A stretch of 64,000 bases of DNA from an uncultured Candidatus Marinamargulisbacteria bacterium. Lineage in GTDB: Bacteria > Margulisbacteria > Riflemargulisbacteria > GWF2-35-9 > DYQY01. Shown piece by piece: positions 16,449 through 59,693 of the stretch (the first letter of the stretch is position 1; the number at the start of each line of letters is the position of its first letter). The notes under the pieces were generated by a model. It was not told where the DNA came from. It worked only from the letters and a program-made list of their open reading frames with translations, and ran no database searches. A program made the translations under genes and the position numbers. The stretch covers positions 8,441-72,440 of the forward strand of contig CAYSAQ010000002.1 of the NCBI GenBank assembly GCA_964429235.1, written 5' to 3'.

Positions 16449-16463
16449 ACATACATTATAGAC

Positions 16464-16490
16464 TAAAAAAGCCCGAGATAACTCGGGCTT
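16464..16490 (-). terminator. Rho-independent terminator downstream of the peroxiredoxin gene
   Basis: Minus strand reads AAGCCCGAG-TTAT-CTCGGGCTT followed by a T run. Confidence 0.75.
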
Positions 16491-16514
16491 TCAAATATTA
16501 ACAAAGAATAGCTA

Positions 16515-17171
<657 letters not shown>

Positions 17172-17242
17172 TTTATTCCTCCTTCTTTTTTACCTTACTA
17201 TTTCATTAAACTCCAATTTTTATCAAAGTCAACAATCCATAC

Positions 17243-18394: not shown

Positions 18395-18543
18395 ATCTTA
18401 TCTCCTTTATAATTATCTGTTCGCAAAATGATACCCCCGGGGGGTGCTTATTGTCAATTACATATTTTCACATCTTAATATTTGGATGCGTCTTTATTAA
18501 CAAGGGATTAAGCGCAAAACCCTTCGCACGACAAATAGATTTG

Positions 18544-18593
18544 TTGACAAAAAAACGCTACAGTAATACACTGCTTTTTGAGAATTATTCTCA
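18544..18593 (+). promoter_or_regulatory. Promoter plus Fur-family box upstream of the MBL-hydrolase/Mrp operon
   Basis: TTGACA (18544-18549), 17 nt, TACACT (18567-18572), 6 nt, then the 7-1-7 palindrome TGAGAATTATTCTCA (18579-18593). Confidence 0.6.
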
Positions 18594-18617
18594 TTTACTT
18601 ATTGGTTAGGAATAAAA

Positions 18618-27926: not shown

Positions 27927-28013
27927 GGACAGGTGGCCGAGTGGCTAAAGGCGGCAGACTGTAAATCTGCTCCGGTTTCCGGTACGTAGGTTCGAATCCT
28001 ACCCTGTCCACCA
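27927..28013 (+). tRNA. tRNA-Tyr (anticodon GTA), class II with long variable arm, CCA encoded
   Basis: Hand-folded cloverleaf. Acceptor GGACAGG/CCTGTCC. Anticodon stem GCAGA/TCTGC with loop CTGTAAA. Variable arm CCGG-TTT-CCGG. T arm GTAGG-TTCGAAT-CCTAC. Ends ACCA. Confidence 0.9.
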
Positions 28014-39551: not shown

Positions 39552-39563
39552 CGGAGGGAAATT

Positions 39564-42500
39564 ATGAGCGAAAAAATTGAGGCACTAAGAAAAAAACTAA
39601 CAGAAATATTCCAATTGGATCAGACTGATTTAGATTTCGGTATATACCGAATTATGAATCAAAAAGCAGAAGAAATTACAGATTTCATGAACAACAGACT
39701 CCTTTCTCAAGTTAGCGAATCGTTTTCCCAGTTTAAATCAGACGGACAATCTGCTATACAACTAGAACTGGACAAGTTAATTGATACTCTAAAGCAAGCA
39801 GGAATGAACCCCGAAGATTCTCCTAAAGTACAAGATTTAAAATCAAAGCTAGCTGGAGCTGTAGATATTGCAGCTGTCGAAAATGAAGTTTTTTCCCATT
39901 TAACCAGTTTCTTTTCACGTTATTATGAAGGAGGAGATTTTTTATCTCTTCGTCGTTATAAAAAAGATGTCTATGCTATCCCCTATGAAGGCGAAGAAGT
40001 AAAACTTCATTGGGCAAATGCTGACCAGTATTATATAAAAAATTCAGAAAATTTTAGAGACTACTCTTTTAAACTTAATAATGGAAAAACTGTTCATTTT
40101 AAACTTATAGAAGCCGAAACTGAAAGAGATAATAATAAAACACAAGCTGATAAAGAACGTCGGTTTATTCTAATAAATGATGATCCCTTAATAATTGAAA
40201 ATGATGAGCTATATATTCGGTTTCAGTACATTGCAGATGAAAACAAGCTTACACAGGTTAAACATAACGAGCAAGCAATTCAAACTGTGTCTAGTTTAAT
40301 TCCTAAAGCGGAATTTGCTGGGTTTTTAGGACTTTTACAACTTAAGCCTACTGAAAAAAATAAAAAACGTACTTTGCTAGAAAAATATTTAAATGAATAT
40401 ACATCTAAATATAGCTTTGATTATTTCATTCATAAAGATTTAGGTGGATTTTTTAGAAGAGAGTTAGATTTTTATATAAAAAATGAAGTGTTATTTCTAG
40501 ATGACTTAGATGAAGATAATATCAAGTTTTCTTTAAGTAAAGCCAAGACAATTAAAGCGATTGCTAATAAATTTATTGATTTTTTGGAACAGTTAGAAAA
40601 CTTTCAGAAGAAAATCTGGCTAAAAAAGAAGTTTGTAGTAGATAGTGGCTACTGTCTAACAATCGATAACGTACCAGAAGATATGTATCCAGAAGTTATT
40701 GCTAATACAAAACAAATTGAAGAATGGGAAAGTCTGTTTACTATAAGTGAAATTAATGGGGATATGCTAACTATTTCAGGCAATATCTTGCTTAGTGATA
40801 AAGAAGATAAACAGAAAAAAATAGATTTCTTAAAACAAAATCCCTTTTTAGTTTTAGATACTAAATATTTTGATCAAGAATTTACTCAAAAATTACTTGC
40901 TTCAATCACGGATCTTGATGAAAAAACAAACGGACTTTTAATTAACGCAGATAATTTTCATGCATTAAACTTATTACAAGAAAAGTATAAAGAAAAAATT
41001 AAATGCACATATATTGACCCGCCATATAATACTGCCGCTTCGGAAATAATATATAAAAATAATTATAAGAATTCTTCATGGTTAACCTTTATTAATAGCA
41101 GATTAACAATGCTAAGTTCATTTGGTTTAAGTAGATCACCTCTGATGATAGCGATAGATGAATACCAACTAGTTGAACTAACTATGATGTTGGATAATCA
41201 ATATGGAAAAACGAATAGAGAGTTAATAGTAATTAATCACCATCCCCAAGGAGGCAAAGGTAAACATATCGCATATACTCATGAATATATGCTGTGCTAT
41301 ATCCCTGAAAATACATCAGCTTTTGTTAAAAAAATAACTGAAGCAGGTATAGAAGAGCGAAGTTTTATGAGAAGTGGTACTGCAGAGAGCAATTTTAGAC
41401 AATACCGTCCTAACAGTTTTTATGCTTTTATTGTTGATTCACAAACAAGTTCGATAATAGGCATAGAACAACCTCCAGAAAAAGAAGAACCCTATGATAA
41501 GGAGAAAACGAACGATGGATTTATTAGGATTTATCCCTTAAGTAGAGACGGACAAGAACGTGTTTGGAGAAATTCCTATGAGACTTGTTTGGAGCATATT
41601 AGTAACAAAAAAATTATTTGTAAAAATAATCGAACTATTTATCAAATCATTAATAACGAGGATAAATCAAATGCAATTTTCAGTAATTGGACTGATTCTA
41701 AATTTAATGCAGGACCAAATGGTACGAACTTATTGAGAGACCTACTAGGTGAACAAAATATTTTTTCATATCCTAAATCTATATATACTGTTGAAGAGTC
41801 TTTGCGAATAAGTGATGGAAGCAATCAAAATCAACCCATATTAGATTTTTTTGCTGGTTCTGGCACAACTGGTCACGCTGTTATCAACTTAAATCGCGAA
41901 GACGCTGGTAAGCGAAAATTTATTTTAGTAGAAATGGGGGCGTATTTCGATACAGTAACGAAACCACGTATCCAAAAGGTTATTTATTCTGAAAACTGGA
42001 AAAACGGCAAACCACTTTCGCGCAAAGGTTCTAGCCATATTTTTAAATACATTCGATTAGAATCTTATGAGGATGCCTTAAATAACCTTAAACCAAAAGA
42101 TACGAAACAAGCCCAGTTAGCATTAAAATCAGCCGATCCTTATGTGCAAGATCAATATATGTTGTCATATAAACTAGACTTCGAATATAAAGATAGTCTA
42201 ATTAATCTGGGGATGTTTGAGCACCCCTTTGATTATCAAATGAATATTTCTAACGGCACAGAAACTAAACTTGTTAAAGTTAATTTAATCGAAACTTTTA
42301 ATTATCTGATTGGTCTTTATGTTAAATCTGTTTATAACATCAATGATTTTCAAATAATAGAAGGAATGTCTCGCAAAGAAGAAAAAGTGTTGGTCATTTG
42401 GCGAGACATCAAAGAAAAAGACAACAAAACACTAGATGATCTGTTTAAAAAGCTTCGTGTGAATCCTAAAGATTTTGAATTTGATCGTATCTATGTAAAT

Positions 42501-42605
42501 GGTGACAATAACTTAGAGAATTTAAAACTTGATAAGGAAAACTGGAAAGTAACTTTGATCGAAGAAGAATTCAAACGACGCATGTTTGAAGTAGAAGATG
42601 TATAG
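39564..42605 (+). CDS. Beta-class N6-adenine/N4-cytosine DNA methyltransferase (type III Mod-like) with about 480-aa N-terminal extension
   Basis: Motif IV DPPY at 41016-41027 (aa 485) precedes motif I FFAGSGTTGHA at about 41846-41878 (aa 762), which is the beta permutation. GGAGGG Shine-Dalgarno upstream. Confidence 0.85.
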   Translation: MSEKIEALRKKLTEIFQLDQTDLDFGIYRIMNQKAEEITDFMNNRLLSQVSESFSQFKSDGQSAIQLELDKLIDTLKQAGMNPEDSPKVQDLKSKLAGAVDIAAVENEVFSHLTSFFSRYYEGGDFLSLRRYKKDVYAIPYEGEEVKLHWANADQYYIKNSENFRDYSFKLNNGKTVHFKLIEAETERDNNKTQADKERRFILINDDPLIIENDELYIRFQYIADENKLTQVKHNEQAIQTVSSLIPKAEFAGFLGLLQLKPTEKNKKRTLLEKYLNEYTSKYSFDYFIHKDLGGFFRRELDFYIKNEVLFLDDLDEDNIKFSLSKAKTIKAIANKFIDFLEQLENFQKKIWLKKKFVVDSGYCLTIDNVPEDMYPEVIANTKQIEEWESLFTISEINGDMLTISGNILLSDKEDKQKKIDFLKQNPFLVLDTKYFDQEFTQKLLASITDLDEKTNGLLINADNFHALNLLQEKYKEKIKCTYIDPPYNTAASEIIYKNNYKNSSWLTFINSRLTMLSSFGLSRSPLMIAIDEYQLVELTMMLDNQYGKTNRELIVINHHPQGGKGKHIAYTHEYMLCYIPENTSAFVKKITEAGIEERSFMRSGTAESNFRQYRPNSFYAFIVDSQTSSIIGIEQPPEKEEPYDKEKTNDGFIRIYPLSRDGQERVWRNSYETCLEHISNKKIICKNNRTIYQIINNEDKSNAIFSNWTDSKFNAGPNGTNLLRDLLGEQNIFSYPKSIYTVEESLRISDGSNQNQPILDFFAGSGTTGHAVINLNREDAGKRKFILVEMGAYFDTVTKPRIQKVIYSENWKNGKPLSRKGSSHIFKYIRLESYEDALNNLKPKDTKQAQLALKSADPYVQDQYMLSYKLDFEYKDSLINLGMFEHPFDYQMNISNGTETKLVKVNLIETFNYLIGLYVKSVYNINDFQIIEGMSRKEEKVLVIWRDIKEKDNKTLDDLFKKLRVNPKDFEFDRIYVNGDNNLENLKLDKENWKVTLIEEEFKRRMFEVEDV

Positions 42606-42630
42606 GTATAACGAAATGGAATCAATTTAG

Positions 42631-45600
42631 ATGGCAGCTAAAAAGAAAAAAAAGATCGATTTTCATAGAAAGCTGGTACTTTTTAAATACATATTAAGTT
42701 TATTTGAAACAAATACCATAGAAGGAATTGCTCCAAATATAAAAAATCCTGATTTGGAAGAGATCAATATAGAAAAAAGCAAAACTAATTTTCACTTAAC
42801 GATTACTAATCGCTTAATAGCTTTTGAGCATATTCCATTATCAAAACTAGAACAATACGATGATAATATTATTCGCCATACGCTACATATTCAAGATAAT
42901 CGACAGCAAAAATTAAAATGGAAATACTTCCAATATCTATCTCTATTATTTATTGAAATTTATTTAGATAAGTATTTTGAAGATCCCGCAAAATTATTAA
43001 TCAACATAAATGAATTTCGTAAGATATATAATGAAAAAGAGATTCCAGATGAACAAATAGCTCCGTATACCCTTTCTGATCTAAAAAAGTTAGCTTTTTG
43101 GAATGCCACTGGTTCAGGAAAAACGCTTCTTATGCACGTTAACATACTTCAATATAAACATTATTTAAATTTACATGGCAAAGAGAATGATTTAAATAAA
43201 ATAATACTACTTACACCAAATGAGGGTTTATCAAAACAGCACTTAGAAGAGTTCGCTTTATCAAGTTTAAATTCTGAAATTTTTAGTAAAGACCAAAATA
43301 TGTTTACAACTGTGTATAAACCAATAGAAATTATTGAAATAACTAAATTAAAAGACGAACATGGAGACAAAACAGTTGCTATCTCAGCATTCGAGGGCAA
43401 CAATCTTGTTTTGGTAGATGAAGGTCATCGCGGTTCAAGCGGAGAAGAGTGGAAAAGCAAAAGAGATGCGCTGTGTGCTGAAGGTTTCACCTTTGAATAC
43501 TCTGCAACTTTTGGCCAGGCTGTTAGAGCCTCGAACAAACAAGATTTAGAACAAGAATATTCTAAATGCATCATATTTGATTATTCATATAAATTTTTTT
43601 ATGGTGATGGCTACGGCAAAGATTATCGGATCCTAAACTTGTCAGATGATTCTAACGAAGAAAGTAGACAACAGTATCTTACAGCAAGCCTTCTTGCGTT
43701 TTTTCAGCAAATATCAATCTTTGAAGACAACAAACATGATTTTTCACCATTTTTATTAGAAAAACCGCTTTGGGTTTTTGTTGGTGGTAGCGTAAATGCT
43801 GTTCGTACAGAAAATAAAAGACAAGTTTCGGATGTCATTGATATTCTTCAATTTATAGGAGGCTTTGTCAAAGAGAAAGCAAGAAGTATTCGGTTCTTAG
43901 ATGATTTAATTAATCAAAGACACGGATTTTTAGATGCTAAGGGACTTAGTATCTTTGATAATAAATTTACTTATCTAATTGAGAAAAAAATATCTGCTGA
44001 AAAAATGTATTCACAAATAATTAGTACTGTATTTAATTGCCCAACCGATGGGGCTGATTTACATATAGAGAATTTAAAAGGTGCTGATGGCGAGCTTGGA
44101 CTACGTGTTGGCGGAAGTGATTACTTTGGAGTAATTAACGTCGGAGATTCGAACAAATTAATTAAACTCTGTGAAGCAAGTGGATTAAGTGCCAGTGACA
44201 AAGACTTTTCTGATTCATTATTTCATGGAATAAATAAAAAAGAATCGTCTATAAATCTTTTAATCGGTTCAAAGAAATTTACGGAAGGATGGAGTTCATG
44301 GCGTGTTTCGACGATGGGACTAATGAATATTGGTCGTACAGAAGGGTCTATGATCATTCAGTTATTCGGTAGAGGCGTAAGACTAAAGGGGTATAACTTC
44401 AGTTTGAAACGAAGTCGTTCTCAAAACTTTGTAAAAGAACCAAAAAATATAGATAAAGTTGAAACGTTAAACATCTTTGGTGTTAGAGCAGATTACATGA
44501 AAACATTTAGAGAATATTTAGAACAAGAAGGATTGCCTATAAACGACAACATAATTGAGTTTACGTTGCCGGTATTATCAAATTTGGGGCACGTTAAGAC
44601 ACCCCTTAAATATCCTCGTATTAAAGATGGCATATCCTTCAGGAAAGATGGTGGGCAAGTAGTATTAGAGTTGCCTCCAGACAAATTCATTATGAATCCT
44701 TTAATTTTAGACCTTTATTCTAAAGTACAGACGATTGAAGCAGTAAAAGGATATTCTGCTGAAAAAATAAAAAATGAAGAAGTCTTTAAATCTGATCATT
44801 TGGCTTTTATTGACACAGAAGAAATTTTTCTTGAATTAGAGCGGTATAAATATGAAAAAGCTTGGTATAACCTGAGTTTTGACAAAGAAACCATTGTTGA
44901 AATTTTAGGGCATCATAGTTGGTATATATTAAAAATACCTAGTTCCGATATGTATTTTAATGATTTTTCAAAAATTTATCGTTGGCGGGAAATAGCAAAA
45001 GTGCTGATGCAAAAATATATAGAGAGATTTTATAATTATAAGCGAAACGAATGGGAAGCGGAGCATCGAGAAATGGCTATATTAGACGATAATGATCCAA
45101 ATATGGTCAAAGAGTACGTTTTTTATATCCATGATTCCATGACAGATATAATCAGCAAGTTAAATCAGTTAAAAGATGAAATCAAAAAAAGACAAATCCT
45201 TGATATTGAATTTGGGAATTTTCAGACTATAAGCTGGTTAAACCATTTATATCAACCGTTAGTCTGTTTTGATAAAAGCAATGCAAATTTAAAAGTTACC
45301 CCAGTACAACTAAATGATGATGAAGCTCTATTTGTTAGTGATTTGAAAAAATATTATGAAAACAATATATCCTTTTTTAAGGATAAAGAATTGTACTTAC
45401 TCAGAAATCAAGGGAAAGGTCGTGGCGTTGGATTCTTTGAAGCTAATAATTTCCATCCTGACTTTGTCCTATGGTTAATAAAGGATGGCAAGCAATACGT
45501 CTCGTTTATAGATCCCAAGGGTCTAAATTGGTCTACAGGTATCAATGATTCCAAAATACAATTCCACAAAACCGTTAAGGATGTTGAAAAAGAAATGAAG

Positions 45601-45762
45601 GATTATAGTGTCATTTTAAATTCGTTTATTATTTCTAATACTGAATTTGAGCAATTAACGTTACGCCGAGAACATATTTCTAAACAGGAATTCGAGAATA
45701 ACAATGTTATTTTTCAAGCAGATAGCAACTATATTGAGAAGATATTGGTGAACGTGAAATAA
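42631..45762 (+). CDS. Type III restriction Res-like SF2 helicase with C-terminal PD-(D/E)xK-like motif
   Basis: Walker A ATGSGKT (43105-43125). DEGH (43417-43428). SAT. QLFGRGVR. The C-terminus has HPD (D944) followed by FIDPK (D961, K963). Confidence 0.8.
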   Translation: MAAKKKKKIDFHRKLVLFKYILSLFETNTIEGIAPNIKNPDLEEINIEKSKTNFHLTITNRLIAFEHIPLSKLEQYDDNIIRHTLHIQDNRQQKLKWKYFQYLSLLFIEIYLDKYFEDPAKLLININEFRKIYNEKEIPDEQIAPYTLSDLKKLAFWNATGSGKTLLMHVNILQYKHYLNLHGKENDLNKIILLTPNEGLSKQHLEEFALSSLNSEIFSKDQNMFTTVYKPIEIIEITKLKDEHGDKTVAISAFEGNNLVLVDEGHRGSSGEEWKSKRDALCAEGFTFEYSATFGQAVRASNKQDLEQEYSKCIIFDYSYKFFYGDGYGKDYRILNLSDDSNEESRQQYLTASLLAFFQQISIFEDNKHDFSPFLLEKPLWVFVGGSVNAVRTENKRQVSDVIDILQFIGGFVKEKARSIRFLDDLINQRHGFLDAKGLSIFDNKFTYLIEKKISAEKMYSQIISTVFNCPTDGADLHIENLKGADGELGLRVGGSDYFGVINVGDSNKLIKLCEASGLSASDKDFSDSLFHGINKKESSINLLIGSKKFTEGWSSWRVSTMGLMNIGRTEGSMIIQLFGRGVRLKGYNFSLKRSRSQNFVKEPKNIDKVETLNIFGVRADYMKTFREYLEQEGLPINDNIIEFTLPVLSNLGHVKTPLKYPRIKDGISFRKDGGQVVLELPPDKFIMNPLILDLYSKVQTIEAVKGYSAEKIKNEEVFKSDHLAFIDTEEIFLELERYKYEKAWYNLSFDKETIVEILGHHSWYILKIPSSDMYFNDFSKIYRWREIAKVLMQKYIERFYNYKRNEWEAEHREMAILDDNDPNMVKEYVFYIHDSMTDIISKLNQLKDEIKKRQILDIEFGNFQTISWLNHLYQPLVCFDKSNANLKVTPVQLNDDEALFVSDLKKYYENNISFFKDKELYLLRNQGKGRGVGFFEANNFHPDFVLWLIKDGKQYVSFIDPKGLNWSTGINDSKIQFHKTVKDVEKEMKDYSVILNSFIISNTEFEQLTLRREHISKQEFENNNVIFQADSNYIEKILVNVK

Positions 45763-45883: not shown

Positions 45884-47716
45884 ATGAGTTACCCTAAATC
45901 CCCAACAGAAATACTTAGTCAGGTTTTTGGCTACAAAACATTTGTAGGCAAACAGAATGAGATTATTGACCATGTTCTTAGTGGCAAGGATGCATTAGTT
46001 CTAATGCCTACGGGTGGCGGAAAATCTCTTTGCTTTCAATTGCCTGCGCTCATTTTTGATGGGGTTACTATTTGTATATCTCCATTAATAGCTCTAATGC
46101 AGGATCAGGTATCAGCTTTAAAGAACTTAGGAATAAATGCAGAATTTATAAATTCCAGTTTAAATTATTCTGAAAAGAAAGTTATTGAGGATAAAATACT
46201 AAAAAATGAAGTAGATTTAGTCTATGTGTCACCTGAAAAACTGAATATGGGTGATTTTTTATCTCTTTTAAAGCAATCTAATATTTCATTATTTGCCATA
46301 GATGAAGCTCACTGTGTTTCTCAGTGGGGTCATAATTTTAGACCAGAGTATACTAAATTCTCATCCTTAAAAGAAGATTTTCCAAATGTTCCAAGAATTG
46401 CTTTAACTGCTACAGCAGATGAGATCACAAGGATTGATATTATAAAGAACCTCAATCTTGAAAATGGTAGAGTATTTGTTTCTAGTTTTGACCGTCCTAA
46501 TATTAAGTACATAGTAAATACAAAAGATAAAGAAAAGAAACAATTATTAGATTTCATCAAAACAAAGCATGAAAATAATTCTGGGATCGTTTACTGCATA
46601 TCCAGAAAAAGAGTAGAAAATATTGCAGAATACTTAGCTGGAGAAGGATTTAATGCATTTCCATATCATGCTGGCATGGATAATAAAACTAGAGCAATCA
46701 ATCACGATAAATTCATTAAGGAAGAAGGCGTTATTATTGTTGCTACAATAGCTTTTGGCATGGGCATAGACAAGCCGGATGTAAGGTTTGTGGCACATCT
46801 TGATCTACCAAAAAGTATCGAAGCATATTATCAGGAAACTGGTCGTGCAGGACGAGATGGATTGCCATCCGATGCTTGGATGGTATATGGATTGAAAGAT
46901 ATTTTCCAATTACGTCAATTTATAGAAAATTCTGATGCAGCTCAAAACCAAAAAAGAGTTGAACATCAAAAATTAAACTCTTTGATTGGCTATGTGGAAG
47001 CTATTAGCTGTAGGAGGATAATTCTATTAGATTATTTTGGAGAAGAGTCAGCTGAAAAATGTCAAAATTGTGATACTTGTAATGAACCACCGATAGTATA
47101 TGACGCTACTATCGACGTACAAAAAGTATTATCTTGTATTTATAGAACACAGACAGAACGCTATGGGTTTGGTGGCAACCATATAATAAATATTTTACTT
47201 GGGAAAAACGATGAAAAAATAAGAAGATTTAATCATGATGAACTTAGCACATTTGCTATTGGGCAAGATGTTTCAGAGCCACAGTGGCGATCTATTATTA
47301 GACAAGTAGTTATTCTAGGATTTGTAGATATTGATATGCAACACTCAACATTAAAGATAAATGATGAAGGAATGAAGATATTGAAAAAGGATGGCCCTAA
47401 AGTTGAATTAAGGAAGGTAATCTTGAAAAGCAAAGCTTCTAAGAAAAAATCTAAATCAGCAGCAATAACCACCCTTACAGATTCTGATGATGTAGAATTA
47501 TTTAGTAAATTAAGAGCACTTCGTCTAGAGTTTGCTCGTAAAGAGAACATGCCTCCATATATTATTTTTAATGATCGCACCTTAAATGAAATGACTATAT
47601 CTAAACCAAAGAGTTTAGACGAAATGTCTGAAATATCAGGCGTGGGTCAACATAAATTACAAAAATATGGCAATGATTTTTTAGAAATTATAACAGAGCA
47701 CAGATATAATGAATAA
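45884..47716 (+). CDS. recQ: ATP-dependent DNA helicase RecQ (full length with Zn, RQC and HRDC regions)
   Basis: PTGGGKSLCFQLPAL. DEAHCVSQWGHNFRPEY. Cys cluster CRR..CQNCDTC. HRDC-like tail (LRALRLEFARKENMPPYIIFNDRTLNEM..GVGQHKLQKYG). Confidence 0.9.
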   Translation: MSYPKSPTEILSQVFGYKTFVGKQNEIIDHVLSGKDALVLMPTGGGKSLCFQLPALIFDGVTICISPLIALMQDQVSALKNLGINAEFINSSLNYSEKKVIEDKILKNEVDLVYVSPEKLNMGDFLSLLKQSNISLFAIDEAHCVSQWGHNFRPEYTKFSSLKEDFPNVPRIALTATADEITRIDIIKNLNLENGRVFVSSFDRPNIKYIVNTKDKEKKQLLDFIKTKHENNSGIVYCISRKRVENIAEYLAGEGFNAFPYHAGMDNKTRAINHDKFIKEEGVIIVATIAFGMGIDKPDVRFVAHLDLPKSIEAYYQETGRAGRDGLPSDAWMVYGLKDIFQLRQFIENSDAAQNQKRVEHQKLNSLIGYVEAISCRRIILLDYFGEESAEKCQNCDTCNEPPIVYDATIDVQKVLSCIYRTQTERYGFGGNHIINILLGKNDEKIRRFNHDELSTFAIGQDVSEPQWRSIIRQVVILGFVDIDMQHSTLKINDEGMKILKKDGPKVELRKVILKSKASKKKSKSAAITTLTDSDDVELFSKLRALRLEFARKENMPPYIIFNDRTLNEMTISKPKSLDEMSEISGVGQHKLQKYGNDFLEIITEHRYNE

Positions 47717-50700
47717 AATAGCATTTATTGATACAGAAACAGACGCTAAAGGTAAGAGATTACTTGATATTGGGGCTGTGGATCAGGATGGTTCAAAGTT
47801 TCATTCAAATTCAACCGTAGAACTTTTAGACTTTATAAGTCGTAACGATTATTTATGTGGACATAATATCATTAAACATGACTTGCCATGTATAGAAAAA
47901 GTAACTAGCACAGATTTATCTGGGGCATTAATCATTGATACGTTATTTTTATCTCCATTGTTATTTCCAACAAAGCCATATCACGCTCTATTAAAAGATG
48001 ACAAACTACAAACAGATGAGTTAAATAATCCTTTAAATGACGCAATAAAGGCAAAAGATCTTTTTTATGATGAAGTATCAGCATTTCAAGATATAGATAA
48101 TGATTTAAAACAGATATATTTTATTCTATTAAAAAACAAAGAAGAGTTTTGGGGTTTCTTTAACTTTGTAAATTACTCATGTCCTCTCATTGATATCAAA
48201 ACAATTATTTATGAAAGGTTTAAAGATAAAATTTGCCTAAATTCAAATTTAGAAAAGATAATACAAGAAAACCCTGTAGAGTTAGCGTATTCTTTAGCTT
48301 TAATTAATACTAATAGTAGATATTCTATAACTCCTCCATGGGTAATAAAGAACTATCCTGGAGTTGAAAGAGTCCTTTATTTATTAAGAGGCAATCCTTG
48401 CTTACAGGGATGTTTATATTGTAATAAATCACTTGATTCTAGAGCTGGTTTAAAAAAGTATTTTGGCTTTGATTCTTATAGATCATTTGAAGGCAAATCT
48501 TTGCAGGAGCAAGCTGTTAATGCTGCTATTAATAATAAATCTATTGTAGCAGTTTTTCCAACTGGTGGGGGAAAATCTGTAACATTTCAAGTGCCAGCTT
48601 TAATGAGTGGAGAAAATGTAAAAGGTTTAACAGTGGTTATTTCGCCATTACAGTCGTTAATGAAGGATCAAGTAGATAATTTAGAAAGGTCAAATATTAC
48701 TGAAGCTGTAACTATTAATGGTTTATTAGACCCAATCGAAAGGGCAAACTCTTTTGAGAGAGTCGAGAATGGTGCTGCATCTATGCTGTACATCTCTCCA
48801 GAATCTTTGAGGTCAAGATCTATTGAACGTCTCTTGCTTGGACGAAACATTGTTCGTTTTGTCATTGATGAGGCACATTGTTTTTCTGCCTGGGGACAGG
48901 ACTTTAGAGTTGATTATCTTTACATAGGAGATTTTATAAAATCATTACAAGAAAAGAAGAATATGGAAAGCAGTATTCCAGTTTCTTGTTTTACAGCGAC
49001 AGCAAAGCAAAATGTAATTCAAGATATTAAAGATTATTTCCAAGAAAAATTATCACTACAAATGGAAACATTTAATACAAACCCATCAAGAACAAATCTC
49101 ACCTATAAAGTAATCCCAAAAAATAATGATGAAGATAAATACGAGACATTAAGAAGCCTCATCGATGGAAAGAATTGTCCTGCCATAATTTATGTTTCAC
49201 GAAAAATTAGAGCATATAAGATTGCAGAACGATTATCTAGTGATGGATATTTGGCTAAGCCGTATCATGGGGGAATGGACAAAAAAGAAAAGTCTGAAAA
49301 CCAGGATGCATTTGTTCGTGGTGATGTGGATATTATGGTTGCTACATCTGCTTTTGGAATGGGAGTAGATAAAAAGGACGTTGGAATGATAATCCATTAT
49401 GAGATATCAGACTCGCTTGAAAATTACATTCAGGAAGCTGGCAGAGCTGGGAGGGATGAGAATATTGAAGCTGATTGCTATGTTCTATTTAACGAAGAAG
49501 ATTTAAGTAAGCATTTTATATTATTGAATCAATCTAAATTAAATATTAAGGAAATTCAACAAATATGGAAAGCAATAAAGGATATAACTCGTTTTAGGTC
49601 CAGTGTTTCAAACTCAGCTTTAGAAATTGCAAGAAAAGCAGGCTGGGATGACAGTGTTTTCGATATTGAATCGAGAGTTAAAACTGCAATTTGTGCTTTA
49701 GAAGAAGCCGGTTATCTTAAAAGAGGGCAAAATATGCCTAGAATATTTGCTAACAGTATCCTTTCTAAGAATGCAGAAGATGCCGTTAATAGGATAAATT
49801 CATCAGGAATATTTAATGATCGACAAAAGCAGCATGCAGTTAGAATCATAAAAAGTCTTCTATCAAATAAAAACACAAAAAATCCTAATGATGAAGTTGC
49901 TGAATCAAAGGTTGATTATATATCAGATAGGCTGGGGATTGTAAAAGAAGAAGTTATTAATGTGATTAATCTTTTGCGTGAAGCCAAAATATTAGCAGAT
50001 ACAAAAGATTTAACAGCGTTTATTAAAAAAGGTGAAAAGAAAAATAGGTCTTTAGCTATTGTGCATTCAATTAGTAAGATTGAGAAATTTTTGGTGTCAC
50101 AATTTGAGCAGGAAGAGAAATCCTTTCATATAAAAGAATTAAATGAATTAGCGGAGGAGAATGGATGCGCTGATGTGTCTCCAAAAAAGATCAAAGACAT
50201 AATTAATTTTTGGGTAATAAAAAATTGGATTAAGAGAAAACAAAATGATTTTTCTAAAAATTCTCTTACAATTATATCTAACTATTCAGGCACGGAATTA
50301 GAAGAGAAATTAAATAAGAGATATGAATTAGCTTGTTTTATAGTCGATTACTTATATGTAAAAAGTAACGAAGCCCCATCTCCAATAGATTGTGTTGTAG
50401 AAGAAGTTTTAGTTGAATTTTCAGTTCATGAGTTAAAAGATGCATATGAGAAAAACCTATTAATTAAGCTAAGCGTAACTATACCAGATGTAGAGGATGC
50501 TTTATTTTATTTATCAAAAATGGATTCAATAAAAATTGAAGGAGGCTTTCTTGTTATATACAATAAGCTTACAGTTGAAAGGTTGGAGCAGGACAATAAA
50601 AGAAAATATAAAGCAGATGATTATAAGAAACTTAATCTGTTCTATGAAAATAAAGTTCAGCAGATTCATATTGTAGGGGAATATGCGAAAAAAATGCTTA

Positions 50701-52505
50701 GTGATTATAAGGAAGCATTACAGTTCGTAGAGGATTACTTCCAGCTTAATTACAGTTCTTTTTTAAATAAATATTTTAAAGGTAGTAAACAAAAAGAAAT
50801 AAAAAGAAACATAACCCCTGCGAAGTTTAAACAACTTTTTGGTGAATTGTCTCCAGCACAATTAGCTATTATTAATGATGACAGTTCTCCTTATATTGCA
50901 GTAGCAGCTGGCCCAGGAAGTGGTAAAACAAGGGTATTAGTTCATAAACTTGCATCTTTATTATTGATGGAAGATGTAAAGCACGAGCAATTATTAATGG
51001 TAACTTTTTCAAGAGCGGCTGCAACAGAATTTAAGAAACGATTAATAGGATTAATTGGTAATGCTGCCTGTTTTATTGAAATAAACACTTTCCATGCTTA
51101 TTGTTTCGATTTGCTAGGAAAAGTTGGTTCACTTGAAAAATCACAAAGCATTATAAATGCGGCTGTAGAAAAGATTAAGAATAATGATATAGAACAAAAT
51201 CGTATTACAAAGGCAGTTCTAGTGATTGATGAAGCTCAAGATATGGATAGTCATGAATTTGAGTTAATAAAAGTATTAATGGAACATAACGAAGATATGA
51301 GAGTAATTGCTGTCGGAGATGATGATCAAAATATATATGAATTCAGGGGTGCAAGTTCTCAATATTTGGAGCAATTCATTACAGAGAAAAATGCCAAAAA
51401 AATTGAATTGGTTGAAAACTATCGGAGTAAGTCAAATCTTGTTGAATTTACAAATAAGTTTGTTGAAAAGATTCATAATCGTCTTAAAATAACTCCAATT
51501 ATTTCTAACACTACGGAAACAGGAGTGGTAAAGCTAATTAAGTATGCAAGTTCTAGTTTAATTACCCCAGTAGTTAACTATATAGCAAAATTAGAACTGA
51601 GAGGCACAACATGTATTTTAACTCATAAAAATTATGATGCATTGCAAATAGCAGGATTATTACTACAGAAAAATTTGCCTGCAAAGCTTATTCAAACAAA
51701 TGATAGTTTTAGTTTATATAATATGTTAGAAATCCGCTATTTTATTGAACAACTTAATTTTCGTGACGATAAATTTATTATCAGCGAAGAAAGTTGGGAA
51801 TTTGCTAAAAGGAAGTTGTGGGGAACATATCAGGAAAGCCCTAAAATTGATATATGTATCAATCTAATTAATGCTTTTGAGCAAAGCACGCCAAAAAAGA
51901 AATATCAATCAGATTTCGAGGTTTTTATAAGAGAATCAAAGCTTGAAGACTTTACTATTACGAACAGAGACACTATTTTTGTTTCAACGATTCATAAGGC
52001 AAAAGGTAAAGAGTTTGATAATGTGATATTAATGTTAAATGATTTTAGTTTGGATAGTAATGCTAGAAAGCGAGAGCTGTATGTCGCAATGACAAGAGCA
52101 AAACAAAATCTGATAATTCATTTAAACGGGAACTATTTAAATGACATTACCTGTCAAAACATAGATCAAGAAAATGATAATTATCAGTATGAGACATCAA
52201 ATTTGTTGATTATGCATCTATCATATAGAGACATTTGGTTGAGTTATTTTATTTCAAGGCAGGATATGGTTTCTAAGCTTAAAAGTGGAGGTATACTGAA
52301 AGCTGATAGTGAAGGGTGCATAGATAGCAATGGTAATTATATAGTTAAGTTCTCAAATAGTTTTAAAGAAAGAATAATAGGCTTTAAGAATAAAGGATAT
52401 GAGCTAATAGAGTCTAAAATAAATTATATTATATACTGGCAACCAGAAGAAAATTCTGATGAAATAAAAATAGTATTACCGGAGTTAAGGTTTGTGAAAA
52501 AATGA
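47709..52505 (+). CDS. Triple-fusion protein: DnaQ-like exonuclease + RecQ-type helicase + UvrD/REP-type helicase (1598 aa)
   Basis: N-terminus FIDTETD and GHNIIKHD (DEDD Exo I/II). FPTGGGKSVTFQVPAL and DEAHCFSAWGQDFR (RecQ core, aa 280-600). AAGPGSGKT at 50909-50929, VIDEAQDM, GDDDQNIYEFRGA, VSTIHKAKGKEFD and YVAMTRAK (UvrD core, aa 1060-1470). Confidence 0.85.
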   Translation: MNKIAFIDTETDAKGKRLLDIGAVDQDGSKFHSNSTVELLDFISRNDYLCGHNIIKHDLPCIEKVTSTDLSGALIIDTLFLSPLLFPTKPYHALLKDDKLQTDELNNPLNDAIKAKDLFYDEVSAFQDIDNDLKQIYFILLKNKEEFWGFFNFVNYSCPLIDIKTIIYERFKDKICLNSNLEKIIQENPVELAYSLALINTNSRYSITPPWVIKNYPGVERVLYLLRGNPCLQGCLYCNKSLDSRAGLKKYFGFDSYRSFEGKSLQEQAVNAAINNKSIVAVFPTGGGKSVTFQVPALMSGENVKGLTVVISPLQSLMKDQVDNLERSNITEAVTINGLLDPIERANSFERVENGAASMLYISPESLRSRSIERLLLGRNIVRFVIDEAHCFSAWGQDFRVDYLYIGDFIKSLQEKKNMESSIPVSCFTATAKQNVIQDIKDYFQEKLSLQMETFNTNPSRTNLTYKVIPKNNDEDKYETLRSLIDGKNCPAIIYVSRKIRAYKIAERLSSDGYLAKPYHGGMDKKEKSENQDAFVRGDVDIMVATSAFGMGVDKKDVGMIIHYEISDSLENYIQEAGRAGRDENIEADCYVLFNEEDLSKHFILLNQSKLNIKEIQQIWKAIKDITRFRSSVSNSALEIARKAGWDDSVFDIESRVKTAICALEEAGYLKRGQNMPRIFANSILSKNAEDAVNRINSSGIFNDRQKQHAVRIIKSLLSNKNTKNPNDEVAESKVDYISDRLGIVKEEVINVINLLREAKILADTKDLTAFIKKGEKKNRSLAIVHSISKIEKFLVSQFEQEEKSFHIKELNELAEENGCADVSPKKIKDIINFWVIKNWIKRKQNDFSKNSLTIISNYSGTELEEKLNKRYELACFIVDYLYVKSNEAPSPIDCVVEEVLVEFSVHELKDAYEKNLLIKLSVTIPDVEDALFYLSKMDSIKIEGGFLVIYNKLTVERLEQDNKRKYKADDYKKLNLFYENKVQQIHIVGEYAKKMLSDYKEALQFVEDYFQLNYSSFLNKYFKGSKQKEIKRNITPAKFKQLFGELSPAQLAIINDDSSPYIAVAAGPGSGKTRVLVHKLASLLLMEDVKHEQLLMVTFSRAAATEFKKRLIGLIGNAACFIEINTFHAYCFDLLGKVGSLEKSQSIINAAVEKIKNNDIEQNRITKAVLVIDEAQDMDSHEFELIKVLMEHNEDMRVIAVGDDDQNIYEFRGASSQYLEQFITEKNAKKIELVENYRSKSNLVEFTNKFVEKIHNRLKITPIISNTTETGVVKLIKYASSSLITPVVNYIAKLELRGTTCILTHKNYDALQIAGLLLQKNLPAKLIQTNDSFSLYNMLEIRYFIEQLNFRDDKFIISEESWEFAKRKLWGTYQESPKIDICINLINAFEQSTPKKKYQSDFEVFIRESKLEDFTITNRDTIFVSTIHKAKGKEFDNVILMLNDFSLDSNARKRELYVAMTRAKQNLIIHLNGNYLNDITCQNIDQENDNYQYETSNLLIMHLSYRDIWLSYFISRQDMVSKLKSGGILKADSEGCIDSNGNYIVKFSNSFKERIIGFKNKGYELIESKINYIIYWQPEENSDEIKIVLPELRFVKK

Positions 52506-54007
52506 AAATTACAGCTTCACATCTTTATTCATACATCCAATGTCCTCATAGGATATGGCGGGACATTTATGGTCCTCAGCATGAAAAATCAAAAGAAGAT
52601 AACGCTTTTTTGCAAATGTTATGGGAAAAAGGTGTTGCACATGAAAAGAAAATAATAGATTTATTAGATGAGTTTGTTGATATATCTAAATTCCCAATAA
52701 GTAAAAGAAAAGAAGAAACTATTAAAGCCATAAAGGGTAAGGCACGGCACATCTATCAAGGAGTTATTGCTTATGATGATCTATACGGTATACCTGATTT
52801 GCTTGAGTTACAAGGTGATGGTTTTTATATGCCAGTTGATATTAAATCTGGTATAGGATATGAGGAAACTGACTTAGGTGATGCTAAGCTTAAGAAGCCT
52901 TATGCAGTACAACTTGCTTTATATGTTGAGATTCTTAATAAATTAGGAGTGCAGTCTTCAAAAGATGCATGTGTTTGGAATATAAATGCAGATCGTATTT
53001 TATATCAATTAGAACAACCACAGGGAGCAAGAACTCCTCAAACCTATTGGGAGCTGTATGAGGAGACAAAAAATAGTGTCAGGTTATTGATGCAAAATAA
53101 AAAACAAAATAAACCGGTTATTGCGGCAACATGCAAGGTTTGCCACTGGTACGAAAGTTGTAAGAATTGGTGTATAGATAATGACGATTTAACTAGAGTT
53201 TTTTATCTTGGCAGAACTAAGCGAGATGTATTTAATCAGGAATTAGGTGTGTTTTCTGTTGAAGATTTAGCGAAACAAGATGTGGTTGAGATATTAGCAA
53301 TAAAAAAAGAAAGAAAAGGAGCACTTCCAGGAATTGGCGAGACAAATTTGCCAAAATTCCTTCGAAGAGCCAAATTGCTGCAAGATGATGGGCTTCCTGT
53401 TTTGTACGAAATGGTGGCGTTCCCCAAAGTAGATTATGAGCTTTATTTTGATATAGAGACAGATCCTACACAGGACATAGTGTATTTGCATGGTTTTTAT
53501 GAGAGGAATTTGATAACGAATGAAACTAGATTTGTGTCATTTGTTGCTGAAAGTATTTCCGATGCAGCTGAGTCTACAGCATGGGCACAAGCTATTGAGT
53601 ATATACAAAGTTTCTCAGAAGATAATATGGCCATGTACTATTATTCAGCATATGAAAAGACTATGTATCGTCATCTGCAAGAAAAATATCCAGAAATAAT
53701 AACAGGAAGAGATCTTGATAAGTTATTTGCAAGAGAGAATGTTATCGATCTATATACGAATGTTGTATTTAAAAAGACGGATTGGCCTTTATCCAGTTAT
53801 TCAATAAAAGAAATAGCTGTATATTTAGGGTTTGCATGGCGGGACGAATCTCCTTCAGGAGCGCTTTCAATAAAGTGGTATAACGACTATTGTCAGGCAA
53901 GAGATGGAAAGCTCTTGCAGCGCATTTTAGATTATAATGAAGATGATTGTATAGCGACCATGATCGTAAAAGACGGCATAGAGAATATGCAAAAGAATAA
54001 ATCATAG
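52502..54007 (+). CDS. RecB-family nuclease (TM0106-like): Cas4-like PD-(D/E)xK N-domain plus RNase H-like C-domain
   Basis: Cys near the N-terminus (YIQCPHRIW). IPDLL..VDIKSG. QLALYVEIL. CKVCHWYESC cluster. C-terminal YFDIETDP exonuclease-like motif. Overlaps the upstream gene by 4 nt. Confidence 0.75.
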   Translation: MKITASHLYSYIQCPHRIWRDIYGPQHEKSKEDNAFLQMLWEKGVAHEKKIIDLLDEFVDISKFPISKRKEETIKAIKGKARHIYQGVIAYDDLYGIPDLLELQGDGFYMPVDIKSGIGYEETDLGDAKLKKPYAVQLALYVEILNKLGVQSSKDACVWNINADRILYQLEQPQGARTPQTYWELYEETKNSVRLLMQNKKQNKPVIAATCKVCHWYESCKNWCIDNDDLTRVFYLGRTKRDVFNQELGVFSVEDLAKQDVVEILAIKKERKGALPGIGETNLPKFLRRAKLLQDDGLPVLYEMVAFPKVDYELYFDIETDPTQDIVYLHGFYERNLITNETRFVSFVAESISDAAESTAWAQAIEYIQSFSEDNMAMYYYSAYEKTMYRHLQEKYPEIITGRDLDKLFARENVIDLYTNVVFKKTDWPLSSYSIKEIAVYLGFAWRDESPSGALSIKWYNDYCQARDGKLLQRILDYNEDDCIATMIVKDGIENMQKNKS

Positions 54008-54441
54008 TGCAAGGTCGAGATACTTTAACTAGATTCCTTGATGCTCAAGGATATATGTATGATCGAGCATTAAAAAGAGATAAAAGCTGGAAGAAAGCGT
54101 AGCCACTGGATGTGGCATGTATTTCCTCAGATAAAGGACTTGGGAAAAGCCCAACAGCTATTAAATATGCTATCCAGAGCAAACAAGAAGCAGAAGCATA
54201 TATTAATCATCCAGTTCTTGGCCCAAGATTAATAGAGATTTCAGAAGCTTTTATGGCGATTGAGGGGAAGACAGCTAATGAGATATTAGATTCCCCAGAT
54301 GACATAAAAATGAAGTCTTGTATGACATTGTTTAATCTTGTTAGTGATAATCCTATCTTGCAGAAGGTTATTGATAAGTATTACGAAGGCGAACAGGATG
54401 TTAAAACGTTAGAGATAATTAACAGCGTAGGGAAAGGTTAG
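54007..54441 (+). pseudogene. DUF1810 family gene interrupted by two compensating frameshifts
   Basis: Frame 0 from GTG 54007 reads VQGRDTLTRFLDAQGYMYDRALK. Frame +1 (54074-54136) reads KEIKAGRKRSHWMWHVFPQIK, the family hallmark. Frame 0 resumes at GLGKSPTAIKYAIQSKQEAEAYINHPVLGPRL. The shifts occur at the A5 run 54072-54076 and at AAAGG near 54133-54137. Confidence 0.7.
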
Positions 54442-58116: not shown

Positions 58117-58144
58117 TCAAACGAAGACAACGATTACGCTACAT

Positions 58145-58202
58145 TATCCCACTCCTCAAAAACTCTCTGTAGGTTCGGAATAACGTCCAACTCTGTCCAC
58201 CA
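58145..58202. repeat. 58-nt direct repeat copy A (3' part resembles the tRNA-Tyr T-arm/acceptor end)
   Basis: 51/58 nt identical to 59636-59693. It contains GTAGGTTCG..AAT....CTGTCCACCA, compared with GTAGGTTCGAATCCTACCCTGTCCACCA in the tRNA. Confidence 0.7.
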
Positions 58203-58264: not shown

Positions 58265-59431
58265 TTACAATTTAGAAAGATTTTTAGACAAATAACGAAA
58301 ATTTATTAATTCTGTCCCATTAATGTTTTGCTGTAAATGTCCTGCATAGCAAAGAAACTTTTTAGTAATTAGTGAAGAGAAGTTTTTTTCAAAATAATTA
58401 AGACCTTTTAGATAATCTCGAGAGAAGGTCTCGGCTGATTTTATTTCAACTGCAACAACTTTTCTTTTTGATTCATATATTAAGTCAATTTCATTTTGAT
58501 TGCTGTCTCGATAAAAATATAAGTTGCTATCTTTGCCAAGATTGTAGCGAGTTTTTAATACTTCTAATACAACAAGGTTTTCAAATAAATTGCCTCTCAG
58601 AGGGTCTCGTGATAATTGGTTTGTATCTTCGAGTCTTAGTAAGTATGAGGCAAGCCCTGTGTCATAAAAGTATAGTTTAGGTGATTTTATTAATCTTTTA
58701 TTGCTGTTGCTATAAAATGGTGGCAGTAAATACAAAATATATGAAGCTTCTAAAACAGAAAGCCATGAATTAATTGTAGGGACAGATACCCCAACCTCAT
58801 TTGCTAAGTGAGAAGCAACAAAGATGTGGCCAATTCTTCCAGCACAAAGTCGCATAAACTTTTTAAATAAACTGAGGTCTTTTATTGCTATTAGTTGTCT
58901 TACGTCTCTTTCAATATATGTTTCATAATAATTTCGATAAACAGTGGTCGGATTTAAGTTTTTATCAAATATTCTAGGATAAAATCCTGTAAAGATAATT
59001 TCGTTTAGGGACCTATCTTCAAAATCTTGTAATTCTTCTAAAGAAAAAGGTAGAAGTTTAAGTAGTCCAGTCCTGCCTGCTAAAGATTGAGTGACTTTTT
59101 GTAATAGTTCAAATTGTTGGCTTCCTGTAAGTATAAATTGACCTGCGTTATTATTATTGTCTACTATTTCTTGTAAATAAGATAATAATTGTGGGGCTCT
59201 TTGAATCTCATCAATAATCGCGTTGTTGTTAAGTTCTCTTAAAAATTTTCTAGGATCACTTAATGCTAAATCAAGCTGGTCTGGTGACTCTAGCGTAACA
59301 TAGGCTTTATTAGGAAAAGTGTTTTTGGCCAAAGTTGTTTTCCCTGATTGTCTTGGACCTGTAATTGTTACTATGGGAAATGAGCGGGAAAGTTCCAGTA
59401 ATTCATAGGTTATAGTACGTTTAATAATCAT
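58265..59431 (-). CDS. AAA+ ATPase with DUF4143-type C-terminal domain
   Basis: Start refined to MIIKRTITYELLEL. Walker A GPRQSGKTTL. Walker B IIDEIQ. The track ORF extends to a TTG at 59452. Confidence 0.8.
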   Translation of the reverse strand: MIIKRTITYELLELSRSFPIVTITGPRQSGKTTLAKNTFPNKAYVTLESPDQLDLALSDPRKFLRELNNNAIIDEIQRAPQLLSYLQEIVDNNNNAGQFILTGSQQFELLQKVTQSLAGRTGLLKLLPFSLEELQDFEDRSLNEIIFTGFYPRIFDKNLNPTTVYRNYYETYIERDVRQLIAIKDLSLFKKFMRLCAGRIGHIFVASHLANEVGVSVPTINSWLSVLEASYILYLLPPFYSNSNKRLIKSPKLYFYDTGLASYLLRLEDTNQLSRDPLRGNLFENLVVLEVLKTRYNLGKDSNLYFYRDSNQNEIDLIYESKRKVVAVEIKSAETFSRDYLKGLNYFEKNFSSLITKKFLCYAGHLQQNINGTELINFRYLSKNLSKL

Positions 59432-59443
59432 GATACTAGTATT

Positions 59444-59500
59444 ATACACCAATTTATGTAATTTTAAACTATAACTTTATAATTGCATAAATTGGTGTAT
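59444..59500. promoter_or_regulatory. Perfect 15-bp inverted repeat just upstream of the AAA ATPase gene
   Basis: ATACACCAATTTATG (59444-59458) and CATAAATTGGTGTAT (59486-59500), separated by a 27-nt AT-rich spacer. Confidence 0.5.
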
Positions 59501-59635
59501 TGTTTCTATTAACTCAAATATTCCAGTAGTAGTTTACAATAAACAGGAGTTTTAGTTTTTAATCCTTAGTCAAAATCCTAAATTGTTTAATTCGATATGA
59601 TTGCTTTTAAAGGTAATCATCTTAAATAACTAAAG

Positions 59636-59693
59636 TATCCCACTCCTCAAAAACTCTCTTTAGGTTCGGAATCACGTCCAAAGAGCTCCACCA
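59636..59693. repeat. 58-nt direct repeat copy B
   Basis: Pairs with 58145-58202. It ends TCCACCATT, like the tRNA-Tyr 3' junction (TCCACCATT). Confidence 0.7.

Follow-up and report, generated by a model that had tools for sequence, protein, structure and literature searches.

Helicase motors of the RecQ and UvrD/PcrA types move along single-stranded DNA in the 3'-to-5' direction, and several described systems couple such motors to nucleases. In WRN-type RecQ proteins a DnaQ/DEDD fold at the N-terminus precedes a RecQ-type superfamily 2 (SF2) core. AddAB and RecBCD join a UvrD-like superfamily 1 (SF1) motor to a RecB-family PD-(D/E)xK nuclease with an iron-sulphur (Fe-S)-type cysteine cluster, and Gabija (GajAB), Hachiman (HamAB), Nhi and Hna follow a helicase plus nuclease logic as stand-alone or small units in defence islands. 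Here we analyse a three-gene stretch (positions 45884-54007) from an uncultured Candidatus Marinamargulisbacteria bacterium, which encodes a canonical RecQ helicase of 610 aa (45884-47716, + strand), a giant fusion protein of 1598 aa (47709-52505, +) and a dual nuclease of the TM0106 family of 501 aa (52502-54007, +). All positions refer to the window, that is the whole stretch of 64,000 nucleotides that was analysed (GenBank assembly GCA_964429235.1, contig CAYSAQ010000002.1, positions 8,441 to 72,440 of the forward strand).

An earlier reading of these letters, hereafter the original prediction, had taken the three genes for one compact module in a defence island. As far as sequence comparison can tell, a conserved three-gene system is not supported. 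We consider it rather probable that these 8.1 kb hold three DNA-processing genes which were acquired independently and stand in an operon-like stack specific to this lineage, within an island of about 30 kb at a tRNA-Tyr gene, and that the giant gene is autonomous and horizontally mobile. Sequence comparison assigns the first gene to RecQ and the third to TM0106, two known families, and places the giant protein in a dual-motor helicase and putative exonuclease family with a fixed architecture and defence-like genomic behaviour.

Architecture of the giant fusion protein

The sequence-level statements of the original prediction were all confirmed. The three open reading frames (ORFs) are co-directional and lie exactly at the coordinates that it gave, with overlapping stops and starts of 8 nt (ATGAATAA) at the RecQ/giant junction and of 4 nt (ATGA) at the giant/TM0106 junction. 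Together they carry three helicase motors, two RecQ-type and one UvrD-type, which match Pfam and NCBIfam models and have intact Walker A and DExx motifs. Its inventory of three nuclease-type modules was also correct, comprising a DnaQ/DEDD-like N-terminus, where the fold was recovered through Foldseek, a Cas4-like PD-(D/E)xK domain and an RNase H-like domain with the motif YFDIETDP; the C...CxxCx5C cluster of the Cas4-like domain is read in the TM0106 protein as C14...C211xxC214x5C220.

The N-terminus of the giant protein (residues 1-245) gave no match in Pfam or in sequence searches of the PDB. Structure prediction with AlphaFold2 from an alignment of 12 sequences reached a mean predicted local distance difference test (pLDDT) score of 83, with about 90 over residues 1-95, and points to a DnaQ/DEDD-type 3'-5' exonuclease fold in residues 1-100 (47709-48008, +; pLDDT about 90). 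The best Foldseek matches were all DnaQ/DEDD-type 3'-5' exonuclease domains at a probability of about 1.0, among them the Staphylococcus aureus DinG exonuclease (8zef, 9ii8; E 9e-4 to 2e-3), PolB, the T7 DNA polymerase exonuclease, Escherichia coli Pol II, RNase AS, ISG20L2, oligoribonuclease and TREX1/2. The giant family conserves residues D8, E10, D58, D97/D98 and D111 without exception. Two points tell against an exonuclease at this place, namely the weak Foldseek E-values of about 1e-3 and the His/Tyr of DEDD motif III, for which N106/N107 as compared to H92 leaves no certain assignment. Since this residue is not securely assigned, a DEDD-type fold is supported by the model and exonuclease activity is only predicted. 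The domain is followed by a helical bundle (residues 108-226) and an invariant cysteine knuckle, C231x3C235x2C238.

Both motors of the giant protein are intact. The RecQ-type SF2 core (residues 250-630; 48456-49598, +; PF00270, PF00271, TIGR00614) carries Walker A GGGKS286 and DEAH387. It scores 276 bits against TIGR00614 (cutoff 219.8; residues 248-614) and hence falls within this subfamily, and the C-terminal module of RecQ proteins (RecQ Zn, RQC and HRDC; PF16124, PF09382, PF00570) found no Pfam match. The UvrD/PcrA-type SF1 core (residues 1046-1480; 50844-52148, +; PF00580 at 2.2e-31, PF13245, PF13361, PF13538) carries GSGKT1070 and DEAQ1174. Against the pcrA, uvrD and rep equivalogs it reaches about 91-117 bits, where the cutoffs are 911-1144; by these scores it is a UvrD-like core and not an ortholog. 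Because its equivalog scores lie far under the cutoffs, the giant protein is not regarded as an ortholog of RecQ, UvrD, PcrA, Rep, AddA or RecB.

The region between the two motors (residues 631-1045; 49599-50843, +) defines the family. It had no sequence match in the PDB, and Pfam searches of the unannotated segments at E <=5 returned weak winged helix-turn-helix (wHTH) matches, so that it probably consists of tandem winged helices. An exhaustive phmmer search with this region against 1.84 billion representatives (50% clustering) retrieved 721 proteins, 190 of them at E <=1e-30. All full-length members were about 1585-1700 aa long with the region at about 630-1050, and the architecture was constant; the middle region is the signature of the giant family. 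The chain ends in a small, conserved alpha/beta domain (residues 1498-1598; 52200-52502, +; AlphaFold2 pLDDT >90) of unmatched fold class. Its model had no significant Foldseek match among PDB structures (best E 0.27), and therefore no nuclease is claimed there. Two distinct helicase motors and a predicted exonuclease in one chain make this an unusual design.

Distribution and genomic company of the giant gene

The giant family is widespread. A database search gave more than 8000 word-sharing matches, and the top 120 clusters, from Marinilabiliales, Flavobacteriales, Goldiibacteriota and others, were all about 1600 aa long with 68-77% identity and 94-100% query coverage. A scan of GTDB (one genome per species) revealed at least 589 species with a relative, belonging to Bacteroidota, Clostridia, Deltaproteobacteria, Lentisphaerae and Patescibacteria, and a metagenome scan revealed at least 569 stretches that encode one. 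From each collection we inspected the best 80 relatives (50-77% identity). These 160 loci stem from Bacteroidota, Clostridia/Lachnospiraceae/Oscillospiraceae, Deltaproteobacteria, Lentisphaerae, Patescibacteria and Balneolales.

In none of the 160 loci did tblastn with all window proteins detect a separate RecQ or TM0106 gene in the flanks, with the sole exception of an unrelated RecQ on the opposite strand, 2.5 kb off, in one locus (L042). A conserved neighbour of any other kind was not apparent either. Upon all-versus-all clustering of 1324 flanking ORFs, the largest neighbour family was present in 4/80 loci, and the 133 ORFs directly beside the giant gene in the GTDB set matched 143 different Pfam families, a spread from which we conclude that there is no conserved partner. 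Neighbours are found in mixed orientation, with gaps mostly of 100-500 bp. Flanks without a partner, mixed orientation and wide gaps together indicate that the giant gene is a monocistronic stand-alone gene almost everywhere. The claim that the three genes are one module was hence not supported in these loci: the arrangement was recovered only in contigs identical to the window.

The neighbours of the giant gene were further compared with defence models. Pfam families among the 133 neighbours include AbiEii, Fic, HNH, SMC-like ATPases, Schlafen-type helicases and HsdR. Against PADLOC (E <=1e-10) they matched 153 families, with AbiEii (5.5e-100), SoFic (5.8e-105), REase_I (6.9e-278) and PDC-S41 (2.1e-285) as well as PbeA, HEC-01A, PARIS AriA, pAgo, SIR2-APAZ and other PDC-S families. 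A control set of 61 ORFs, taken from the left flank of the window (1-27.9 kb) and from loci of RecQ homologs (L103-L107), matched 13 PADLOC families. This amounts to about 1.15 families per ORF for the giant neighbours as compared to about 0.21 for the control, or roughly fivefold, by a crude measure that counts families and not proteins and uses a small control set partly from other taxa. The crudeness of this measure counts against a defence association, as do several neighbours of giant homologs that are ordinary metabolic genes. Within these limits the enrichment is suggestive for the giant gene.

Among the control ORFs, one matched the PADLOC model RT_UG5-nitrilase (DRT) at 2.2e-194 and another matched Csa3. 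The reverse transcriptase in question is probably the ORF at 15783-18875 of locus L105, since the candidate within the window (4067-7267, 1066 aa, no PDB match) is without a YxDD motif.

Near-full-length copies of the giant gene were found on 12 plasmid records. Their contexts include ParA/ParB, a replication initiator and a type IV secretion system (T4SS) coupling protein on Aliarcobacter pACIB, and, on a plasmid of Bacteroides finegoldii, ssb/ParA. The copies on large plasmids of Alpha- and Gammaproteobacteria are accompanied by RES-Xre and BrnT toxin genes (Cereibacter), a type I restriction-modification (R-M) system (Allochromatium) or insertion sequence (IS) elements (Microvirga). On Nostoc punctiforme pNPUN02 (locus L090, 7824-12842) the giant is annotated as three consecutive coding sequences (RecQ family, UvrD-helicase domain, 3'-5' exonuclease), and on a plasmid of Nostoc sp. 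ATCC 53789 the gene is broken by an IS1634 transposase; these split or interrupted copies are likely decaying. No full-length giant gene was present among 50,697 phage genomes, and IMG/VR yielded one complete and one truncated copy. With the nearest copy, from a metagenome-assembled genome labelled 'Citrobacter', as blastn query, there was no match in complete E. coli genomes. In locus L108, a metagenome contig, a giant gene of 77% identity is followed downstream by a further fragment (6393-6767) that shares 30% identity with residues 1046-1160, where the UvrD core begins; this fragment might stem from a second UvrD-like gene or from a duplication.

Taken together, plasmid copies and neighbours are suggestive of a horizontally mobile accessory gene that is often found near defence genes. 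Mobility as such would also fit the alternative raised by the original prediction, in which the giant protein, here with both of its neighbours, is recombination, replication-restart or anti-restriction machinery of the carrying mobile element and does not serve host defence. The copies beside ParA/ParB, rep and T4SS coupling genes (pACIB), beside ssb/ParA (Bacteroides plasmid) and on large proteobacterial plasmids argue for it, as do the RepB-primase-like gene carried by the island described below and the fact that RecQ and UvrD motors are classical recombination and repair enzymes. For the giant gene, this alternative retains some weight. Most of the 160 loci, however, are without immediately adjacent plasmid or conjugation genes, and the giant neighbours are enriched for defence-model matches. 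Moreover, the polyvalent proteins of conjugative elements are of variable architecture (PMC5512222), whereas the architecture of the giant is rigid. On balance we regard element machinery as a rather unlikely explanation.

Under the favoured reading of an autonomous and mobile giant gene within a gene stack, restriction of foreign DNA by the giant protein comes close to an even chance; a service to the carrying element in maintenance, restart or anti-restriction is possible and appears somewhat less probable, and the small remainder falls to other roles. We tentatively extend this to the family. The proteins of about 1600 aa, with DEDD exonuclease-like, RecQ, wHTH, UvrD and C-terminal domains, could represent an unrecognised and widespread single-protein immune system, in which both motors would sense and dismantle intermediates of phage or plasmid replication or recombination that are degraded by the built-in exonuclease or, optionally, by a promiscuous TM0106 effector module. 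It weighs against such a role that no experimental work on any member of the giant family was found in the literature searched. A description of the fusion family was likewise not found in the full-text literature, the coverage of which was limited; the work on polyvalent proteins (PMC5512222) names UvrD in another context only. If the giant family is indeed a defence or anti-plasmid factor, a common one-gene system would be added; the family is abundant in Bacteroidota and Clostridia, gut taxa among them. The giant family is a reasonable target for experiment, even though the three-gene system dissolves.

The three-gene stretch and its island

The first gene encodes a canonical RecQ. All five Pfam domains (DEAD, Helicase_C, RecQ_Zn_bind, RQC and HRDC) are present, the score against the recQ equivalog TIGR01389 is 786 bits (cutoff 640), which makes the protein a bacterial RecQ, and the motifs GGGKS44, DEAH140 and CxxC393 were identified. 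A strong match to the PADLOC DpdF model reflects generic RecQ similarity. The closest homologs (72-76% identity) are solitary and adjoin sbcCD, glycolysis or dTDP-sugar (sugar-nucleotide) genes (3 loci); a second tier (60-64% identity) belongs to Melainabacteria/Campylobacteraceae. When metagenomes were scanned with this RecQ protein alone, 56 pattern matches were obtained and no relatives among them. The gene itself lies inside the tRNA-Tyr island, between the restriction helicase-nuclease (Res) gene and the giant gene, and thus, as predicted, not in a housekeeping recQ neighbourhood.

That the first gene passes the recQ equivalog cutoff, that its nearest homologs stand in housekeeping contexts and that NCBI names the giant protein a RecQ family helicase would suit ordinary chromosomal DNA-repair paralogs with a coincidental position in the island. 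We hold this to be highly improbable, as the genes, with R-M-like cargo beside them, are flanked by a serine recombinase with tRNA attL on one side and by att-like remnants on the other, and the nearest RecQ and TM0106 relatives come from other phyla. In addition, the giant gene is patchy across phyla, without synteny and with copies on plasmids.

The third gene is a TM0106 protein by its score of 223 bits against TIGR03491 (cutoff 97.45), in an alignment that runs over residues 3-491 and covers positions 1-460 of the 462 in the profile. Residues 1-225 (52502-53176, +) form a Cas4/RecB-like PD-(D/E)xK domain with D113-I-K115, QLALY and the four-cysteine cluster C14, C211, C214 and C220; the match to PADLOC Cas4 is weak (2.6e-7). 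Residues 314-491 (53441-53974, +) form an RNase-H-like, PolB-exonuclease-like domain with YFDIETDP (PF13482 RNase_H_2, 2.4e-27). The closest homologs have about 50-55% identity and are mostly from Patescibacteria. In the three contexts examined they adjoin, respectively, a type III Res-like (ResIII) helicase and a TnsA-like gene, a Type ISP R-M enzyme, and a 1230-aa SNF2 helicase within an island of serine recombinase, OLD and toxin-antitoxin genes. On alphaproteobacterial plasmids, TM0106 is the N-terminal half of proteins of about 1111 aa whose C-terminal half is an SF1 AAA_11/AAA_12 (Upf1/DNA2-like, MkoA-like) helicase (L190, 5980-9315; L191, 5971-9327; L192, 5974-9321; L193, 5980-9315). 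A divergent WYL regulator stands next to the fusion in 2/4, and all four occur among defence or conflict-type genes (dGTPase, SIR2, ubiquitin-like E1/E2 systems, Fic, VapBC, HNH). PADLOC holds no full-length model for these fusions, and a function for TM0106 proteins was not found in the literature searched. If the proposed immune role is true, a function would also be given to the TM0106 proteins, which have long been unassigned in annotation pipelines and are paired with varied helicases.

Five independently assembled contigs from five samples of Antarctic-lake-type metagenomes (L092-L096) start at window positions 52278-52342, in the last approximately 225 nt of the giant gene, and from there onward are identical to the window through TM0106 and the downstream genes. 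The exact TM0106 protein is found on 10 contigs, as compared to 2 for the exact giant cluster and 4 for RecQ. Such a pattern points to differences between strains or to a repeat boundary a little upstream of 52278-52342.

Could RecQ, giant and TM0106 proteins nevertheless be obligate partners of a novel three-gene anti-phage or anti-plasmid system? Overlapping stops and starts, a place in a tRNA-integrated island directly after an SNF2/methyltransferase (Mod)/Res module, the absence of a matching named system and the habit of TM0106 modules to pair with helicases all speak for it. Yet the arrangement was found in none of the 160 giant loci, nor around the three nearest RecQ and three nearest TM0106 homologs, and the trio was seen only in contigs identical to the window. 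The nearest relatives are discordant as well: 77% identity in Bacteroidota for the giant protein, 76% in a further lineage and then 60-64% in Melainabacteria for RecQ, and 55% in Patescibacteria for TM0106. We therefore judge an obligate three-gene system improbable. Tight gene packing in an island is no evidence for a system; conservation as a unit must be tested, and here it fails.

Three considerations count against the stack of independently acquired genes that we prefer. Overlaps of 8 and 4 nt are expected of a co-translated operon, and the three proteins may cooperate in this organism; the absence of the trio elsewhere does not disprove such cooperation; and, with the best 80 relatives sampled per collection, the trio could still occur in a minority clade. 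Cooperation in this genome is plausible and might proceed as follows. The giant protein would load on branched DNA or on 3' tails, for instance at forks, at D-loops or on intermediates of rolling-circle replication or recombination, where its two 3'-to-5' motors would unwind DNA, possibly on different strands, and its predicted exonuclease would trim the released 3' ends. WRN, RecBCD/AddAB and the helicase-nuclease defence systems follow a similar logic. Foreign or aberrant replicons would be the target. TM0106, translationally coupled here, would probably add degradation of both displaced strands by its putative Fe-S Cas4-like nuclease and PolB-exonuclease-like domain, and the upstream canonical RecQ, as an extra captured motor, may add unwinding capacity.

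The statement that the stretch lies in an integrase-bounded island directly downstream of an R-M-like module was borne out. The left boundary (attL) is a tRNA-Tyr (GTA) gene (27927-28013, +; ARAGORN), the 3' end of which overlaps the stop of the ORF for a large serine recombinase, the island integrase (27999-29459, -; Pfam Resolvase, Recombinase, Zn_ribbon_recom). On the right, a repeat search for attR found nothing that repeats the end of tRNA-Tyr exactly and two degenerate copies of its 3' half, the first of which is the candidate attR (58139-58202, +) and the second a further att-like copy (59630-59693, +). These 64-nt direct repeats are 86% identical and share GTAGGTTCG.AAT...CTGTCCACCA with the T-arm/acceptor half of tRNA-Tyr. 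The gene between them encodes a DUF4143/AAA_14 ATPase (58265-59452, -), a match to the PADLOC candidate PDC-S01 (2.8e-104). The two repeats look like att remnants stacked by successive integrations. The island thereby extends over about 30 kb plus a 1.5-kb appendix with the DUF4143 ATPase.

Upstream of the trio, an operon of SNF2, methyltransferase and Res genes begins with an overlapping CARF-wHTH gene (35887-45762 in all). The CARF-wHTH regulator is Csa3-like (35887-36672, +; Pfam HFX_2341_N/CARF and HTH_24; PADLOC CARF3 1.6e-58), and such a sensor in front of the R-M-like module suggests its control by a cyclic-oligonucleotide signal. It is followed by an SNF2-family, DrmD-like helicase (36669-39551, +; PADLOC DrmD 2.5e-202; NCBIfam DISARM_DrmD_b 680 bits, cutoff 950), a type III-like DNA methyltransferase (39564-42605, +; PADLOC MTase_III 9.6e-249) and the type III-like Res (42631-45762, +; PADLOC REase_III 5.2e-223). 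The E. coli IncF plasmid pEC316_2 carries HTH, SNF2, methyltransferase and Res genes without the trio, with a small HTH regulator in place of CARF-wHTH and IS26 directly after Res; close Res homologs also occur on Klebsiella plasmids. Since the module ends at Res on pEC316_2, the trio was rejected as an extension of it.

The remaining cargo consists of the RepB-primase-like gene and many ORFs of unknown type. Small genes follow 3' of the trio, with DUF1810 and a metallophosphatase. The DUF1810 ORF (54112-54441, 109 aa, GTG start) covers profile positions 40-136 of 136 only and may be N-terminally truncated or have a mis-set start; locus L146 likewise has a DUF1810 homolog close to its giant gene. 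Just beyond the second att-like repeat, a gene for a 676-aa protein with HD_4 and RelA_SpoT domains (59806-61836, -; PADLOC PDC-S33 2.6e-10, a weak match) might serve ordinary (p)ppGpp synthesis and hydrolysis or else an alarmone-type defence. A scan for sigma-70 promoters and terminators, with Bacteroidota-type promoters outside its scope, gave counts at or under the shuffle expectation.

Comparison with known helicase-nuclease systems

Regarding named systems, the original prediction was right in recognising none. PADLOC-DB v2 gave only partial domain matches on the trio and no full-length model for the giant protein, with DpdF and PsyrT matching on its RecQ core and GajB on its UvrD core only.

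The TM0106 protein resembles Cas4 in the fold motifs of its N-terminal half and in its four-cysteine cluster. It scores 22.4 bits against TIGR00372, far from the cutoff of 65, and is thus not a Cas4. A link to Cas4 and CRISPR, raised by the CARF-wHTH gene, was considered and rejected because of this sub-threshold score and because no regularly spaced CRISPR-like repeats or tandem arrays were present at 27-64 kb of the window.

RecQ-type cores also recall PsyrTA/RqlHI and DpdF, with a match to PsyrT of 5.6e-79 and matches to DpdF models. No PsyrA/RqlI antitoxin was detected in the trio or in the upstream genes, and a TM0106 nuclease sits downstream, so that the trio is not a PsyrTA system. Against DpdF (NF041063) the two RecQ-type proteins score 197 and 215 bits (cutoff 550) and the neighbouring SNF2 protein reaches 207 bits against DpdE (cutoff 500); no other dpd genes were seen, and the locus is thus not a Dpd system.

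With Gabija, Hachiman, Nhi and Hna the locus shares the helicase and nuclease logic and the occurrence as stand-alone or small units, and the UvrD core of the giant protein partially resembles GajB (1.3e-44). GajA/OLD found no match among the six genes scanned, so that the locus is not a Gabija system, and HamA and Nhi-type nucleases are lacking as well. Two motors per chain with a DEDD-type exonuclease domain, on the other hand, are foreign to all of these systems.

AddAB and RecBCD are approached by the UvrD-like SF1 motor and the RecB-family nuclease with its Fe-S-type cysteines, which is here on the separate TM0106 protein. By analogy, the proteins may process ends and degrade linear DNA. 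The giant protein nevertheless scores 62 bits against addA (cutoff 708) and 53 bits against recB (cutoff 696) and belongs to neither. Its second motor is RecQ-type and not RecD or an inactive AddB, and the nuclease partner is not conserved.

WRN-type RecQ proteins share with the giant protein the order of an N-terminal DnaQ/DEDD fold and a RecQ-type SF2 core as well as the predicted action on forks, D-loops and 3' ends. In contrast to them, the giant protein is devoid of RecQ Zn, RQC and HRDC domains, and it adds a UvrD-type motor, a wHTH-rich middle region of about 415 aa and a unique C-terminal domain. It is, moreover, bacterial and horizontally mobile. The resemblance between the giant protein and WRN is convergent and not one of membership.

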